A stretch of 64,000 nt of DNA from a virus (lineage: Duplodnaviria; Caudoviricetes): positions 1 to 64,000 of the IMG/VR virus record IMGVR_UViG_3300023275_000004; one strand, 5' to 3'. Shown in pieces: positions 5,774-63,966 of the stretch. Below the pieces are notes generated by a model. It worked only from the letters and a program-made list of their open reading frames with translations. It was not told the DNA's origin and did no database searches. Made by a program: the position numbers and the translations under genes. The first letter of the stretch is position 1; each line of letters opens with the position of its first letter.

Positions 5774-8700
5774 TTACTCCACGCCTCCTTTGCGGCCTTC
5801 TGTGCTGCCATAATGTCATTCTTATTACGCATTACAAAGCGTTGTTCTACAGGCACTCCACGAATCTCATCAACGCCCATATCCTTCAACATCTTAATAA
5901 CCTTATTGCGAAGGACTTCATCAGTGAAGGTAACAATCTCAATATCATCAAGAGTTGAAACTGCATGCTTAATCATAATTTCGTTACCACTGCCACTATG
6001 CTTTGACAGAGCATCGAAATCAAAATACGCTTCTTCTGGCTTACTCTTAATGTTTCCATAATTATCGCCAGCATATGAATAGTTATGAGTACGCTTCAGA
6101 ATCTTAGGATTGTAGTAAACACCCATAAGTCCATAGGAATTAGTACTGGCACTTACTTCCTGGTTCTGACGAATAAACACAAAGCCTGATGATCCATGGC
6201 TCTGGTCAGCAGAAGACGACATTCCATCTTTCCACATTCCAAGCGTACGAAGTCGAGCTTCTGTAGAAAGCATTCCACCAGTGGTAACTGTGTACTGAGC
6301 AGCTTCATCTTGATAGAAACTTCCAGCAAGAAGCTGCTTACTCTGAGCCTCCTCATCAGTTACATCAAAACGCTCCCAATAAGGCTGGCCAGAATACTTA
6401 TTCTGATCTGCCATATGGAAGTGTCCAAACTTAGGAAGATGCCCGCCACTTCCCACAAACTCGTCAATTTGCTCACGAGAAGTGATATTAGCAAAAGCAT
6501 TTCTCCAAGCTTCAATTTCTTCCGCAGGAGTCATATTTGCAGTTTCTACTGGCTTAGCTGCCTTAAACTTATTGTACTTACTAGTAGATTTAGTTTGAGC
6601 TGGGTAGTTATCCTTAGAATCCGCACGGGCTGCCATGATTCCAGCCAAGTGACGCCAATAATAAAGCTCCAGATCATCCTCGTTAGCTTCATTCATAGAA
6701 AGACCCATCTCTGCCATTTGAGCGCGAATACGCTCAAGAGATGCTGCCTCTTCTGCGCCCGCAGGCATAGTGAATCGCGTCAGCCCCTTTGAAGCGGCTG
6801 GCGTACCTGTAGTATTGCCACGGAATTCGATTGTTTCACCAGTTGGAAGCGTAACAAGATACATGCTTCCAGGGTTTCCGTTCTCGTCATATCCAAACTT
6901 GTGGTGAAGCTGACCATCCTCGTCAAACTGAGGAACACCATTCTTAACAGCCTTAGGACTGCTAGCCTGACGAAGCTCTACCTTAACTCCAACACCATCA
7001 GTTGATTCAGGCTTATCTTCCTTAGGAGGAGTGTAAACAAATCTTTCAAACTCGCCAGGAGAGCTCTTAGTTCCGTTCTTCTTGTGCTCCTCAGCCTTCT
7101 TGATGTAGCCCAAATAAGTCTGTGCCATCTCCAAGAATGCTTTAGGGTCCTTATACTGCTTGGCAAGAGCAGCATTTTGAGTAGGATCTGCCATTTTGGC
7201 ATCATAGTCATTAATGTAATTCTGAAGTGTATTCTTAACAAAACTCATTCCATTAAGTTTTCCTTCATTGTACTGACCATCAAGTGCATGATGAGAAATT
7301 GTCTTCACACCAGCAATAATCTGCTGGTAGTAGTCGCCCTCATTTGGAAGCTCAACCTTCATGCTACTAGGTGTAAACCCATAGGCATTGCCCACCTGAA
7401 CAGCATTATCTTTAAGCCACTTCTCCACATCCTTGAATGCCTTAGTCTCTTCACGAATCTTCATTTCTCCGTGAAGAGTGTCCTGGCCTGTCTTACTCTT
7501 AGCATGATAAAGAAGAACATGAGCATCTTCAATTTCTGGCCCACCGAAGAATACAGAAGCTCCATAGGAACCGTTAGCCTTAGCCTGCTCAAGAGCAGCA
7601 GGAGTAATGCCAAGATGAATTTCCTGGTCATCATCATTGACAACAATATTTTCTGGAGGCTGAGGCTTTGTATATCCAGCCCTCTTAAAGACATTACCCC
7701 AAAGCTTTTCCATATCATCCACAAGAGAATTCTTGCGATCAAGAGCACGCTGGATGGCGTCTTCTTTATTAGAAGGGCCTCCAAACCCCCAAACCTTTCG
7801 GTTGGCAAATCCTCTCTCAAGAATTTCTGTCATCTTTGAGTCAGAAATTTTAGACATCTTACGAGCTTGCTTAAGTACAGAGAAGTAAGCTGCATTTGCG
7901 TCTTCTTGAGAAATGCTCTTGTTAGCGATAGCGTCATAAAGCTTAGTGTAAACCAAATTTGCACGAGAATCGGCCTTGGAATCTCCAGTAAGGCCATCCC
8001 AGTGACCAATTCCTACAAAGGCACGCCCTTTATCGATACCAACGACGCTTCCATTCTTAAGGATTAGAAGATTCGCGGCATGACCGTCATCGTTATCCAA
8101 CGCCCAGTCAAGCAAATGCTCTTTGGCAAGATCCTGGATCTGAGCAGTATTTAGATCTGTCACTGACGCCTTGGTAAAATCTTTCTCAGCATCGAGCATC
8201 TGCTGAACATGACCCTTACGGTTATCAAATTCAGTGATATGCGACTTTGCTGTCTTGAATCCCCAAGCACTAGACAACTCATGGGCAGCCTGCTCTACGT
8301 CAGCCAAGAAAATATCCTTGTCCTGACGTGGCTTATAAATCCACTTCTTACCAAACTGATCCGACAGAACCATAGCCTCGTGGGTGCTGGTTACTGTCTT
8401 TCCAGACTCCAAGGTGAACTTAGGCTTCATAGCCTCAGCTAGTTCTGCGGCAGCCTTTGCTGCTTCTTCAGCCTTCCTGTTCTCCATGTGCGAGTTAATA
8501 GGCGTGGCCCAGTCATAGACATAGCCGTTCTTCATACTTTCTGGCACAGAATCAGGGAATTCAGCTGCATAAGACTTCAACGCTTCTTGAGGCCAGGAAT
8601 GAGCTGAGCCTCCAGCCTTGTAATACTCATCGTGTGGCTGATAAGGCTTAACATTAGGAGTGAACTTAGGCTTACTTGAATAAAGAGCCGAAGGATCTTT

Positions 8701-52958: not shown

Positions 52959-53024
52959 ATAGCCCCCGTTTGCGCTGGATATCACAAGCGACTTATAACC
53001 CGCACGGAGACAAACACGGGATTT

Positions 53025-53161
53025 AGAGTGTGAAGAGAATTGAACTCTTCCAGCGGACTTGCGCAAGTCCTTTTTTCCACCAAGATTTTATTATGCGGAG
53101 TCGAACCGCACTCCCGTCCAGGAAAATGTTGGAATCGAACCAACGACTGCCATTTACACCC
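53025..53161 (-). ncRNA. tRNA-like RNA with three T-arms
   Basis: GGGTGT/ACACTC closing stem; GTTGG-TTCGATT-CCAAC, GTGCGG-TTCGACT-CCGCAT, GAAGAG-TTCAATT-CTCTTC. Confidence 0.65.
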
Positions 53162-53167
53162 TTAACG

Positions 53168-53336: not shown

Positions 53337-53444
53337 CCAGAGAAGGCCGCTGAATCTCCGTCTCCCACCAATTAGCTAGCTTCGGTCAGTAAGTCAGTAA
53401 CCCCTACTGTGGACCTAATGCTACCTAATGGATGTTTATTCACG

Positions 53445-58561: not shown

Positions 58562-59374
58562 TTACACTGGCATAAGTCCCCACGACAAGAACTCGGACAT
58601 CTGACATTGCGGCTCCTCTGGATTTAGGAAACTAAAAACTGGAGCTGAAAAATCCTTGAAGGATACAGTTGGCCTGGCTACCCAAGTCATACGTTCCGCC
58701 AAAGCTACTTCCTGCTCACCTGTCTGCTTATGAGTGTACTCGACATCCTCACTATAAGCAACCTTCCCGCTGATCGCTCCCAAAGTCTCACGATCAGAAT
58801 AGTCGTCTTCCCAGCTCAAGCCCGCCTCTTTCAACATCCTACGCTTGTCTGAGAAAGTTTTACCTAACAATTCCTTGTGACTATAAACAGAGTTGGCTGC
58901 TAGAAAGATTGCATTACGAAGAGCATCCATTTGTCTCCACAGCAAATAATTTCTTACTTCCATGGTTGAAGGAACGGTAAAAACTCTAGCATCGAAAACT
59001 GAAATCTCTGAGTCTGCACGAAGCCTGTTCCAGTAAGCTCCTGCATAACTTGCAGCCACTGAAACAATTTTCTGAGTCTTTCCAGCAAACCAGTGCTGGT
59101 GAGTTGGTCTAGATAGATCATGCATGATAATAGAAATTTCATCTGACTGCGTATAACCAAACACTGCTCCGCTGATGTTACTACAAAGATAGTTCATCAG
59201 TAGATCCATATCTAGCATAAGCTGTCTATCAAATGGCTTATCAAGGTTCCTGGTGTACGTATGGAAAGCCTTCCCATCGAGCCGTAGAACAGCCCAGGAG
59301 TTACTAGGTAGGATTGCGCCAGTTGCAGCCTCGTAGGACTTCATACGTACAGCTAGCGGGCTAGGAATAGTCAT
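58562..59374 (-). CDS. thg1: tRNA(His) guanylyltransferase Thg1-like 3'-5' polymerase
   Basis: RMKSYE, RLDGKAFH, YTQSDEIS, FDARV, WRQ.DA.RN. Confidence 0.92.
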   Translation of the reverse strand: MTIPSPLAVRMKSYEAATGAILPSNSWAVLRLDGKAFHTYTRNLDKPFDRQLMLDMDLLMNYLCSNISGAVFGYTQSDEISIIMHDLSRPTHQHWFAGKTQKIVSVAASYAGAYWNRLRADSEISVFDARVFTVPSTMEVRNYLLWRQMDALRNAIFLAANSVYSHKELLGKTFSDKRRMLKEAGLSWEDDYSDRETLGAISGKVAYSEDVEYTHKQTGEQEVALAERMTWVARPTVSFKDFSAPVFSFLNPEEPQCQMSEFLSWGLMPV

Positions 59375-60852: not shown

Positions 60853-61479
60853 CTATCGGTAGCGAGGGTAGTTCCTGTTAGGTAAGCCTGACCTGCGCTG
60901 AAGCTTTCTTTCTGAATTGTAGTGTCTGAGCATGACCTTCTCATAAAATTCATAGAACGATCCTACTCGTCTACGGTACTCGCCTGGCCCGTTTTGATTA
61001 TAGGGACGATCAACTAAGTAAGCTTCTACTCCTACTGCCTCTAGAGCATCATAGTTTTTGAGGTTATCTTCAAGAAAAATATCTGTGGGAACTGAAGTCT
61101 TATCCTTGGTAAATGTCAAGCTATCATATTCTATGCCGACAGACTCAAAAAAGTGCTTCGTAGCTTCCTCTGAAGATAACTGTTTTCCAGAGAACCTGTT
61201 AGTTACGATATGAATCGTATTCCCAGCCGCTCTCATATGACGAATGTAGTCAGGAATATTGTCGTCGTATAGCTCTCCTTGCCAGAACAGCTTTTTGCTG
61301 TCTACCAGATCGTCCATATGACTGCAAAACTCTTCAGCGGTATATCCGTACTTAGTGAAGTAGTCCCATACCTCAGGGTGGCTCTCAACCTCTACTTCGT
61401 GTCCTAGGCTAGCTAGGTGCTCGTTATACACACTGAAAAATTTATACAGCACTCCGTCAGAATCTAGCCCTACTCTCAA
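60853..61479 (-). CDS. 5'(3')-deoxyribonucleotidase (HAD, NT5C-like)
   Basis: GLDSDGVL, IVTNR, FLEDN, RPYN. Confidence 0.8.
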   Translation of the reverse strand: MRVGLDSDGVLYKFFSVYNEHLASLGHEVEVESHPEVWDYFTKYGYTAEEFCSHMDDLVDSKKLFWQGELYDDNIPDYIRHMRAAGNTIHIVTNRFSGKQLSSEEATKHFFESVGIEYDSLTFTKDKTSVPTDIFLEDNLKNYDALEAVGVEAYLVDRPYNQNGPGEYRRRVGSFYEFYEKVMLRHYNSERKLQRRSGLPNRNYPRYR

Positions 61480-61728: not shown

Positions 61729-61804
61729 ACTTCCTCCAAAGTAAAACGCCCTTACCGATAAGTCAAAGACTATCAGGAAGGGCGCTACATGTCAAACTGG
61801 AAAG

Positions 61805-61880
61805 GGTGACTGACGAGATTTGAACTCGCGGTCTCTAGGGTCACAACCTAGCGCTTTAACCAGACTAAGCTACAGCCACC
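61805..61880 (-). tRNA. tRNA-His(GTG) with genomically encoded G-1 and C73
   Basis: CTAGG-TT GTG AC-CCTAG; G-GTGGCTG / CAGTCAC-C. Confidence 0.9.
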
Positions 61881-61973
61881 ATTCGGAAATTCCTCGGTGC
61901 CAGTTCACCATAGGAGAAATTTCCTTTGTCTCTGGTCTTCTACTAGAGGATGTGAAACCTCCAACCAGCTACG

Positions 61974-62047
61974 CTGCCCGACTAGGACTCGAACCTAGAA
62001 ACACCGGAGTCAAAGGCCGGGGACTTTGCCAATTCGTCTACCGGGCA
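61974..62047 (-). tRNA. tRNA-Gln(TTG)
   Basis: CCGGC-CT TTG AC-TCCGG (31-39 mismatch); U1-A72, G73. Confidence 0.85.
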
Positions 62048-62205
62048 TAGTGTCCGACCATCGAAATAATCCAGTATCAAGCTAGCCTCACTTGACTTAA
62101 ATCATTCGGAGGGGGCATGTCGTCTCGCACCTATTCCCTCATTTTATATGAAATTAGCTGTGCGCTAAGCACATTTAAGAGATTGCCTTTCCCACTACTT
62201 TCAAG

Positions 62206-62277
62206 CTCTCCGACCTGGACTCGAACCAAGATTAAGGGATTCAGAGTCCCTTGTGCTACCCATTACACTATCGGAGA
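62206..62277 (-). tRNA. tRNA-Gln(CTG)
   Basis: AGGGA-CT CTG AA-TCCCT. Confidence 0.9.
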
Positions 62278-62564
62278 ATAAAGACTTTAAGGCTTTCATC
62301 TGTGCGGTGGCTGCTGTGCGAAGCTTTGGACACTTCGTTACCAGAATGACGTTTAATGAAGGGCTGCTATCCTTCAGAAAACCAGCCTAATGCGAGCAGT
62401 TGACGGCTACCCATGTGCTAATCGCCTTGTAGTCCTAGCTGCTATCCAGTGACTCCATCTAAATGAGAATGAGTTTGCTAGCAGGCTAAATAATAAGCGC
62501 CTTGTAAGCCCACCGAAGGGTAGCTAATCCTCCTGTACTTACATCCCCTCTTATTATTATCGCG

Positions 62565-62637
62565 TCGGGTATGAAGGACTCGAACCTTCCGCCTCCGGAC
62601 TCCAAGACCGGCCGTCTTCCCCATGACCTAATACCCG
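62565..62637 (-). tRNA. tRNA-Pro(TGG), variant
   Basis: CCGGT-CT TGG AG-TCCGG; C1-G72, A73. Confidence 0.75.
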
Positions 62638-62655
62638 GTAAACCTTATAAGTACG

Positions 62656-62729
62656 TCGGGATGACAGGATTTGAACCTGCGACATCTTGCTCCCAAAGCA
62701 AGCGCGCTACCAAACTGCGCCACATCCCG
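62656..62729 (-). tRNA. tRNA-Pro(TGG)
   Basis: CTTGC-TT TGG GA-GCAAG; canonical cloverleaf. Confidence 0.92.
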
Positions 62730-62731
62730 AT

Positions 62732-62815
62732 TGTAAGCAATCAGTAGGACTCGAACCTACAACCCCCGGCTTACCATGCCCGGCGCTCTGCCTTTGAGGC
62801 GTACAACTGCTTACA
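62732..62815 (-). tRNA. Non-canonical tRNA-like RNA (possible Thr-GGT, bulged anticodon stem, extended acceptor helix)
   Basis: T-arm GTAGG-TTCGAGT-CCTAC; CCGG(G)C-ATGGTAA-GCCGG; terminal helix TGTAAGCAGTTG/TGATTGCTTACA. Confidence 0.55.
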
Positions 62816-62830
62816 TGCTTAATACTACTC

Positions 62831-63130
62831 TTACTCTGTACCTTCTGTCAACTCTTCATCCGTAAGAAGCTTTGGACTCAGAATGTTTGTGTACTCATGC
62901 CAAGCCTGCGAGATAGCAAAATATGTTAGCAGGATGTCAATAACTATCCAAAATTCTCGGGTCAGAACAAAATATCTAGTTGGAGGAAAAAACACATCCC
63001 ACACTAACGAAAGTGTCCAACACACAGTCCAGAAGATATTCCACTTGATAGCTCTACGCTGTTTCGGAGAAATAAACTTCCATTGAATCTTAGCCCGAGC
63101 TAGATTCCATTCGACTGCGGTCTTTACCAT
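62831..63130 (-). CDS. Membrane protein
   Basis: Two TM helices. Confidence 0.5.
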   Translation of the reverse strand: MVKTAVEWNLARAKIQWKFISPKQRRAIKWNIFWTVCWTLSLVWDVFFPPTRYFVLTREFWIVIDILLTYFAISQAWHEYTNILSPKLLTDEELTEGTE

Positions 63131-63875: not shown

Positions 63876-63966
63876 ATTACTGGTAGTTGTAGCGGTCCGC
63901 CTTCCTATCTACCAGTATCCCTTAACTCAAGTCGATAAGCGGACATGTGAACTTGAGCTTACAGCG

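Follow-up and report, generated by a model that had tools for sequence, protein, structure and literature searches.

Candidate structured RNA families in the spacers of a phage tRNA array

Three structured spacer elements

The window analysed here comprises the first 64 kb (64,000 nucleotides, nt) of a 125,618-bp phage record in IMG/VR (IMGVR_UViG_3300023275_000004; completeness estimate 98%); its minus strand carries a tRNA array in which three spacers, S3, S2 and S1, each appear to hold one of three unrelated, uncatalogued families of structured non-coding RNA: element A (~165-210 nt), element B (~100 nt) and element C (93 nt). From sequence comparison we lean, with restrained confidence, towards the reading that these RNAs are co-transcribed, excised by tRNA processing and active in trans. 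The spacers and their parts are the following, with folding z-scores for the variable parts.

62278-62563, minus strand: spacer S3, 286 nt, between tRNA-Pro and tRNA-Gln(CTG)
62487-62563, minus strand: variable 5' part of S3, 77 nt, with a hairpin TGTAAGT/GCTTACA inside an A/U-rich stem (z -1.85)
62278-62486, minus strand: element A; the core is ~165 nt in relatives, the window copy has a ~40-nt insertion
62048-62204, minus strand: spacer S2, 157 nt, between tRNA-Gln(CTG) and tRNA-Gln(TTG)
62153-62204, minus strand: variable 5' part of S2, 52 nt, no counterpart in relatives (z -0.65)
62048-62152, minus strand: element B, core of ~100 nt, ending 4 nt before tRNA-Gln(TTG)
61880-61972, minus strand: spacer S1, 93 nt, between tRNA-Gln(TTG) and tRNA-His
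61880-61972, minus strand: element C, 93 nt, filling the whole of S1; at its 3' end, base 61880 doubles as the encoded G-1 of tRNA-His

The initial annotation of this DNA, made from its letters alone, had described an array of structured spacer RNAs punctuated by tRNAs; the description held for the cores A, B and C, which are structured, conserved and located on the tRNA strand within one unit, but not for the 5' parts of S2 and S3, which are variable filler. Its view of the spacers as non-coding was borne out, as the conserved cores contain no open reading frame of at least 30 amino acids, and so was its notion of a panel of distinct RNAs, since the three folds differ and no paralogues of A, B or C were found elsewhere in the phage genome. 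ARAGORN, whether in standard, intron or relaxed (ps80) mode, called no tRNA beyond the six known ones and none in the spacers, and Rfam 15, searched over 61800-62570 with E-values up to 10, gave no match in the spacers, the tRNA clan included.

Measured by minimum free energy (MFE) against dinucleotide shuffles, the whole spacers gave minus-strand z-scores of -3.5 for S1 (-0.7 on the plus strand), -0.3 for S2 and -0.5 for S3. Folding no better than shuffles had been named in the initial annotation as an outcome that would speak against it, and this is what was found for S2 and S3 but not for S1; the comparative data reverse that verdict, and more-than-chance structure in S2 and S3 is indicated by these data, not by folding energy. 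Compensatory changes were observed in 16 of 33 pairs in A, 13 of 24 in B and 16 of 26 in C, above 500/500 column shuffles and every slid control; because the sequences are few (7-9 per family) and related by descent, the shuffle controls are not to be read as probabilities. That the folds belong to the tRNA strand follows from their conserved G-U pairs and, for C, from a z-score that is significant on one strand only, which makes A, B and C structures of RNA and not of DNA.

Conservation among related phages

Relatives were gathered via the neighbouring NT5C, DUF981 and Thg1-like genes, followed by contig look-up; the resulting set has six or seven phages from metagenomes, namely L082, L099, L103, L105 (plus L106, partial and nearly identical to it), L116 and L117. 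The order Pro-Pro-A-Gln(CTG)-B-Gln(TTG)-C-His and the local gene order recur in L082, L099 (without C), L103, L105, L116 and L117, and each element is present in single copy per genome at a fixed place in the array. B is also present in L100, a more distant phage, where it sits in a different array and immediately precedes tRNA-Gln(CTG); the gene contexts of L111 and of L100-L102 differ from that of the window. Within the syntenic arrays, L082 has no detectable tRNA-Gln(TTG) at the corresponding place (L082:9137-9219), where ~80 nt of unrelated sequence separate B and C; in the same phage a tRNA-Met(CAT) replaces the first tRNA-Pro of the window, and a tRNA-His-like gene with anticodon ATG lies at 6758-6830.

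The related phages share 52-57% identity in their DUF981 proteins; in the DUF981 gene, identity at the third codon position of identical four-fold residues is 24-39%, which corresponds to saturation. The full-length identity of A, B and C among relatives is 64-87%, in the same range as that of the flanking tRNAs (63-88%); a lack of spacer conservation, the other outcome that the initial annotation had thought damaging, was thus not what the cores displayed. Cores as conserved as tRNAs across saturated synonymous divergence point to purifying selection.

Searches beyond these relatives were mostly empty. With the array as query, distant-mode blastn against GenBank phages matched the tRNAs only and returned no relative of the spacers; in IMG/VR, the NT5C route led to one distant locus without tRNAs, and the Thg1 route to 80 loci of at most 49% identity, none of which bears B or C according to the covariance models. 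Exact-pattern scans of IMG/VR found the B core and the A core nowhere outside this record, and a metagenome contig scan with the DUF981 alignment recovered only distant, apparently cellular homologs without the array. Among cellular sequences, the closest homolog of the neighboring DUF981 gene belongs to Nocardia, which is a weak pointer to the host. Three matches to B on genome contigs were rejected as chance hits (at most 11 bits, no tRNAs, GC 0.7). The window sequence is contained in public DNA runs from leaf-litter and soil metagenomes, and the public runs listed for it include no RNA run; a 103-kb soil contig, from contigs of four DNA runs, bears element C and tRNA-Pro.

Element C, a portable two-hairpin module

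Element C consists of two hairpins: hairpin 1 has an outer stem CUGGUU/GACCAG, an internal loop UAGUAGA, an inner stem GGAGG/CCUCU and a loop with an invariant CAC; hairpin 2 has an 11-bp stem, a CUAU bulge and a stem GGUG/CACC closed by the hexaloop AACUGG. The helices CTGGT/ACCAG, GGAGG/CCTCT and GGAAATTTCTC/GAGGAATTTCC, which the initial annotation had drawn in S1, were confirmed by covariation across relatives, together with the inner stem GGTG/CACC; its suggested cross-pairing TTCAC/GTGAA competes with this covariation-supported stem and was abandoned, a U-to-C change in L082 being compensated inside the stem and not in loop 1. The alignment of C holds nine sequences from three phage lineages, and none of 500 shuffles reached its covariation.

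The two additional lineages were reached by different routes. An exact-pattern scan of IMG/VR with the C apex added two records, L118 and L119, in which C sits immediately before tRNA-Thr(TGT) within tRNA islands of very large size; the complete record to which L118 belongs, 95.8 kb long, contains no portal homolog of the window phage and no element B. A covariance model detected a further C homolog (47 bits) at L104:6664-6752 (minus strand). All three lineages share an identical apex AUGGUGAACUGGCACCG and an identical CAC in loop 1, and the lower 11-bp stem of hairpin 2 has been almost entirely re-paired by compensating changes between them; on this evidence, C is a portable module shared by two further, unrelated phage lineages (L118/L119 and L104). 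L120 was rejected as a copy of C, its 17-mer match lying within apparent coding sequence and lacking the lower stem. In the window, hairpin 2 of C is A/U-rich and followed by GAAUG, unlike an intrinsic terminator; in the interval 61880-62563 the sole terminator-like match fell inside tRNA-Gln(CTG), and none was found in A, B or C.

Element B

In element B, an outer stem GAGGG/CCCUC, whose second pair is A-U, U-A, G-U or C-G depending on the phage, encloses the stem GGUG/UGCC capped by the invariant loop GAGACGAC; next comes a long bipartite hairpin (GAAUGA/UUAUUU, UUA/UGG, UCAAG/CUUGA), which is followed by the invariant single-stranded tail GAUGGUCGGAC. In the alignment of eight sequences 92% of cells are paired, 0/500 column shuffles reach the observed value on any of five measures, and slid controls are far lower; the covariance model of B (R1) scores 95-108 bits and finds only these copies of B. 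The tail GGUCG could pair with the loop CGAC(C) in a pseudoknot of 4-5 bp; all bases involved are invariant, hence no covariation signal is possible. Of the helices proposed for S2 in the initial annotation, TCAAGT/GCTTGA proved to be the apical hairpin of B and has covariation support; GAAAGTAG/CTAATTTC and TGTGC/GCACA fell away, as they lie in the 5' 52 nt of the spacer, which are unconserved and fold no better than shuffles.

Element A

Element A comprises an irregular 43-nt hairpin P1 (GCUAGCAAACUC...GAGUCACUGGAUAGC) and a multi-helix domain closed by GAGAC/GUCUC and AGGC/GCCU, which holds the hairpin GGGUAG/CUGCUC and a variable hairpin; an invariant GAYUAGCACAU forms an unpaired stretch. 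In the related phages it was detected with nhmmer E-values from 1e-24 to 1e-50, and the present fold is based on seven sequences; an earlier five-sequence fold had compensatory changes in 10/39 pairs, with 0/500 shuffles reaching this level. A pairing GUGCU/AGCAC within A was discarded, as it is not kept by L105 and L103.

The 5' part of S3 is absent in L099 and L116 and different in the other relatives. The hairpin TGTAAGT/GCTTACA noted there at the outset does exist, but it is weak and confined to this variable stretch, and relatives have a different hairpin or none. A recurring GAT(T)AGC motif, also noted initially, clusters in S3 with four copies but is not enriched genome-wide (26 occurrences vs. 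22.5 +/- 4.8 in shuffles); one of the S3 copies is not a hairpin loop but the 3' strand of the P1 stem of A.

Beyond the window, at 75516-75526 of the genome, the minus strand in the sense orientation contains AAUGAGUUUGC, an exact 11-nt complement of the P1 5' strand GCAAACUCAUU; ~0.03 such matches are expected per strand per segment, and twelve segment-strand combinations were tried. Apart from this 11-mer, no complementary target of the invariant single-stranded segments was found in the phage's own transcripts.

Layout of the array and its neighborhood

The phage record contains 36 tRNA genes, every one on the minus strand. The unit that includes the three elements runs on the minus strand from 62851 to 61741, from a promoter-like site to a terminator-like hairpin, in the order Thr-Pro-Pro-[A]-Gln(CUG)-[B]-Gln(UUG)-[C]-His:

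62822-62851, minus strand: promoter-like site TTGACA-N18-TAGTAT, 11 nt upstream of tRNA-Thr(GGT)
62735-62811, minus strand: tRNA-Thr(GGT)
62655-62729, minus strand: tRNA-Pro(TGG), copy 1
62564-62637, minus strand: tRNA-Pro(TGG), copy 2, CCA not encoded
62205-62277, minus strand: tRNA-Gln(CTG), CCA not encoded
61973-62047, minus strand: tRNA-Gln(TTG), CCA not encoded
61804-61879, minus strand: tRNA-His(GTG), CCA not encoded; G-1 encoded (61880)
61741-61786, minus strand: terminator-like hairpin with U tract closing the unit, MFE z -4.7

The promoter-like hexamers are identical and equally placed in L082 and L099; the site overlaps the 3' end of a gene for 99 amino acids, and its conservation may partly reflect coding. 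Equivalent terminator-like hairpins occur in L082 (z -5.4) and L099 (z -8.5), with the structure kept and the sequence different. The hairpin region after tRNA-His (61741-61803; L082:9382-9445; L099:9239-9300) also holds TTGACA and TAGnnT with -35/-10-like spacing for the next gene. Just downstream of the array, likewise on the minus strand, are genes for a Thg1-like tRNA-His guanylyltransferase (PHROG 4717, E 1e-64) and a 5'(3')-deoxyribonucleotidase-like protein (PF06941), at 58562-59374 and 60853-61479 of the window; both genes are syntenic in those relatives whose flank was recovered.

Further spacer RNAs in the tRNA islands

A fourth conserved spacer RNA lies at 63876-63965 of the window on the minus strand, between tRNA-Glu(TTC) and tRNA-Phe, and consists of two hairpins with mutually complementary loops (GUCCGC/GCGGAC). 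It is 85% identical in L099:6383-6469 and was found in L103 too; its stems differ by compensating changes (CTCAAGT/ACTTGAG vs. CTCGTTGT/ACACGAG; CTGGTAG/CTACCAG vs. CTGACAG/CTGTCAG), and folding gives MFE z-scores of -2.1 (minus strand) and -2.0 (plus strand).

The initial annotation had pointed to similar spacers elsewhere in the window, and here its two examples parted ways: 52959-53022 is 92% conserved in L082:19458-19522 and L116:14025-14085, but 53337-53443, between tRNA-Tyr and tRNA-Thr, has no match in L082 or L116. The former is the 3' part (62 nt) and the only conserved portion of a minus-strand spacer that extends over 52959-53166 from tRNA-Ile(GAT) to tRNA-Ile(TAT); nothing in L082 and L116, where the Ile-Ile spacers are only ~70 nt long, corresponds to the 5' part with its three T-arm-like hairpins. 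The tRNA islands of relatives also contain a long conserved non-coding module (L082:6584-6757, L099:6471-6650) with a T-arm-like CCGGTTCGACTCCGG that is not called as tRNA; its counterpart in the genome of the window would fall just past 64000.

Proposed release by tRNA processing and possible functions

The placement of the elements suggests how they might be released. In 7/7 arrays, A stops 0-9 nt short of the start of tRNA-Gln(CTG); the 3' end of C adjoins a tRNA 5' end in eight of nine cases, and C fills the Gln(TTG)-His gap to G-1 in 6/6; B ends 4-5 nt before tRNA-Gln in four of eight. At the opposite ends, A starts immediately after tRNA-Pro in L099 and L116, and several element 5' ends adjoin the 3' end of a CCA-less tRNA. 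CCA is encoded by none of the six tRNAs of the unit, and no CCA-adding enzyme was found in the phage.

Transcription between the promoter-like site (62851) and the terminator-like hairpin (~61741) probably yields one precursor of ~1.1 kb with the three elements and the six tRNAs. By analogy with the small RNAs RNAC and RNAD of phage T4 and with multimeric T4 pre-tRNAs, host RNase P would cut at the 5' end of the downstream tRNA and thus produce the 3' ends of the elements, and their 5' ends would come from cleavage of the RNase Z or RNase E type just behind the discriminator base of the tRNA upstream; an endonucleolytic cut at this position would be expected because the upstream tRNAs lack CCA, and RNase Z makes the post-discriminator cut in many bacteria. 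Release as discrete small RNAs would follow, since the elements adjoin tRNA ends and the six tRNAs lack CCA. Each RNA would then be recognised specifically by a protein, RNA or ligand, as the invariance of loops and tails argues, and we argue on the same grounds that A, B and C are more than inert spacers.

Several points weigh against release of trans-acting RNAs by tRNA punctuation. In L117, B touches neither of its neighboring tRNAs (183 nt upstream, 96 nt downstream), and in L082, L103 and L116 it adjoins only the 3' end of the upstream tRNA-Gln(CTG), with ~90-180 nt to the next downstream tRNA, so that tRNA punctuation by itself cannot set its ends in every phage. The C homolog of L104 is not beside any tRNA; it ends a gene block, convergent with a DUF981 gene, and its hairpin 2 is G/C-rich and followed by UUUGU, resembling an operon-end terminator, which would suit a cis role too. 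Other tRNA junctions of the same array have spacers of 5-17 nt, and L099 has no C; the elements are therefore optional. B in L117, C in L104 and the C-less L099 are exceptions, and punctuation is not the whole story. The MFE z-scores of whole S2 and S3 are not significant, that of S1 (element C) alone being so; the alignments are small and made up of sequences related by descent, and the nine-sequence alignment of C was fitted to the model and is somewhat biased toward structure. Finally, we infer the expression and release of A, B and C from sequence.

The elements might instead act only in cis, as structured leaders or trailers of the pre-tRNA that prevent misfolding, block exonucleases, offer an entry site for RNase III or RNase E, or terminate transcription, and are then discarded; we consider this possible, if on balance unlikely. 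The leader position of A and C, whose 3' ends almost always adjoin a tRNA 5' end, would suit such a role, the intrinsic terminator-like copy of C at a gene-block end in L104 keeps it alive, and the elements come and go among relatives, as the absence of C from L099 and the variable filler modules demonstrate. Yet long unpaired segments have stayed unchanged between phages whose synonymous sites are saturated (in A, GAYUAGCACAU; in B, GAGACGAC and GAUGGUCGGAC; in C, AACUGG and CAC), whereas insulators or nuclease blocks depend on structure, not on sequence; three quite different folds occupy equivalent junctions while other junctions manage with 5-17 nt; and the C apex is identical beside different tRNAs (His or Thr) and in unrelated phages. 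It is because of these invariant unpaired bases, the three folds at equivalent junctions and the portability of C that we favour released, trans-acting RNAs over a role in cis. Neutral explanations, in which the spacers are decayed tRNA genes, scars of introns or mobile elements, or filler with chance helices, appear very improbable: the non-significant z-scores of whole S2 and S3 and the variability of their 5' parts are what they would predict, but the cores are conserved like tRNAs against saturated synonymous sites, have abundant compensatory changes, and lack tRNA features and paralogues. Decay or filler is contradicted for the cores A, B and C and is viable only for 62153-62204 and, in part, for 62487-62563.

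What released RNAs would do can be framed in more specific ways, none of them probable in itself. The initial annotation had proposed a counter-defence arsenal; on such a reading the RNAs would be decoys or sponges for host immune proteins, for example tRNA-targeting nucleases, acting alongside the phage tRNAs, the Thg1-like protein and other RNA enzymes. Phages are known to use tRNAs against anticodon nucleases, the 36-tRNA island and the phage-encoded Thg1-like tRNA-His guanylyltransferase provide a suitable context, and the invariant loops suggest a specific binding partner. This idea is speculation and seems doubtful, as no connection between the three elements and a defence system came to light, ARAGORN and Rfam detect no tRNA mimicry, no Ro/TROVE partner is encoded, and no obvious antisense target of the invariant segments was seen among the phage sequences. 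It is more improbable still that one or more of the elements, B especially, are riboswitch- or ribozyme-like leaders which sense a ligand or cleave themselves and thereby govern or carry out maturation of the adjacent tRNA-Gln. B is compact, has many invariant unpaired nucleotides and the possible tail GGUCG/loop CGAC(C) pseudoknot, and lies beside tRNA-Gln in every copy whose flank was examined, including that of L100 (before Gln(CTG), not Gln(TTG)); even in L117 it sits between both Gln genes, with spacers of 183 and 96 nt. However, Rfam yielded no riboswitch or ribozyme match at E-values up to 10, no expression platform follows B (neither a terminator nor a helix sequestering a Shine-Dalgarno sequence), and the invariant pseudoknot bases are outside the reach of covariation.

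A proposal that extends the trans-acting reading, and to which we attach a low probability, is that C may be a portable tRNA-interacting or tRNA-elbow-mimicking module, and that C, perhaps with A and B, docks on tRNA-handling machinery or on tRNA 3' ends. The invariant loops of C recall parts of a tRNA: YCAC in hairpin 1 is similar to a T-loop fragment, and AACUGG on its 4-bp stem is similar to a D-loop, with GG in the manner of G18-G19. The apex UGGCACCG also resembles the T-box antiterminator core UGGNACC, which pairs with the 3'-NCCA end of tRNA. If docking occurs, candidate partners would be RNase P, the CCA-adding enzyme and tRNA-cleaving defence nucleases, and the phages would gain RNA-level control or protection of their tRNA pool.

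Comparison with known phage and tRNA-associated RNAs

The closest parallel is provided by phage T4, whose RNAC (species 1) and RNAD (species 2) are ~120-140 nt long and accumulate in infected cells, with roles unknown (PMC3014915; PMC9697503). In the T4 annotation, tRNA-Arg, rnaD and rnaC follow in succession with gaps of 1 and 6 nt and are described as small stable RNAs. Like A, B and C, they are non-coding, adjoin a tRNA and lie on the tRNA strand within a phage tRNA cluster; unlike A, B and C, which are placed between tRNAs and mostly adjoin the 5' end of the next tRNA, they are trailers after the last tRNA, and their accumulation has been shown in T4, whereas A, B and C are known from sequence alone. 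No homology of A, B and C to T4 rnaC and rnaD was detected, as the R1 model with filters off gave at most 7 bits, not at rnaC/rnaD, and the nhmmer profiles of A, B and C had no match there. GOLLD and ROOL are structured ncRNAs of unknown function that typically occur near phage tRNA islands, sometimes with tRNAs embedded (PMC12286853); they are far larger (500-800+ nt) and form multimeric cages, compared with 93-210 nt for A, B and C, and the Rfam GOLLD and ROOL models did not match the three elements. In the light of T4 rnaC and rnaD, placed likewise after tRNA-Arg, and of GOLLD and ROOL near phage tRNA islands, the principle called undescribed in the initial annotation is not new (PMC3014915; PMC12286853). 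Y RNA-like RNAs are not indicated either: the only match, to YrlA, was weak (22.6 bits; gathering score 69) and lay over the tRNA-Pro/Thr genes, not the spacers, and no TROVE domain was found in the phage.

The IMG/VR csRNA screen reported covariation-supported intergenic phage motifs, many of them tRNA-like or of unknown role, and required at least three IMG/VR regions per motif (PMC10690425). Since the exact-pattern scans located A and B in this IMG/VR record only and C in just two others, that catalogue is unlikely to include the three elements, as judged from the requirement of the screen and not from the catalogue itself.

The proposed mode of release has its own precedents. In mitochondria, tRNAs act as punctuation and direct RNase P and RNase Z cuts that free mRNAs and rRNAs; here, by comparison, small structured RNAs would be freed. 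Multimeric pre-tRNAs of bacteria and of T4 are further examples. For T4, cleavage of multi-tRNA precursors by the RNase P of the host has been described (PMC11143913).

These parallels define what the three families could add. Phage tRNA islands are now viewed chiefly as codon-supply or anti-defence cargo, and to our knowledge the function of T4 RNAC and RNAD has not been established in fifty years, nor that of GOLLD and ROOL. Three compact families with covariation-supported folds and invariant unpaired nucleotides lend themselves to probing, pull-down and deletion far better than giant ornate RNAs. Should tRNA processing release them and should each have a specific binding partner, they would offer a tractable route to the role of non-tRNA RNAs in phage tRNA islands, and if they act in cis only, they would still document sequence-specific leader elements in phage pre-tRNA maturation. 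In either case, A, B and C add three new families to a kind of RNA already known from the tRNA cluster of T4.

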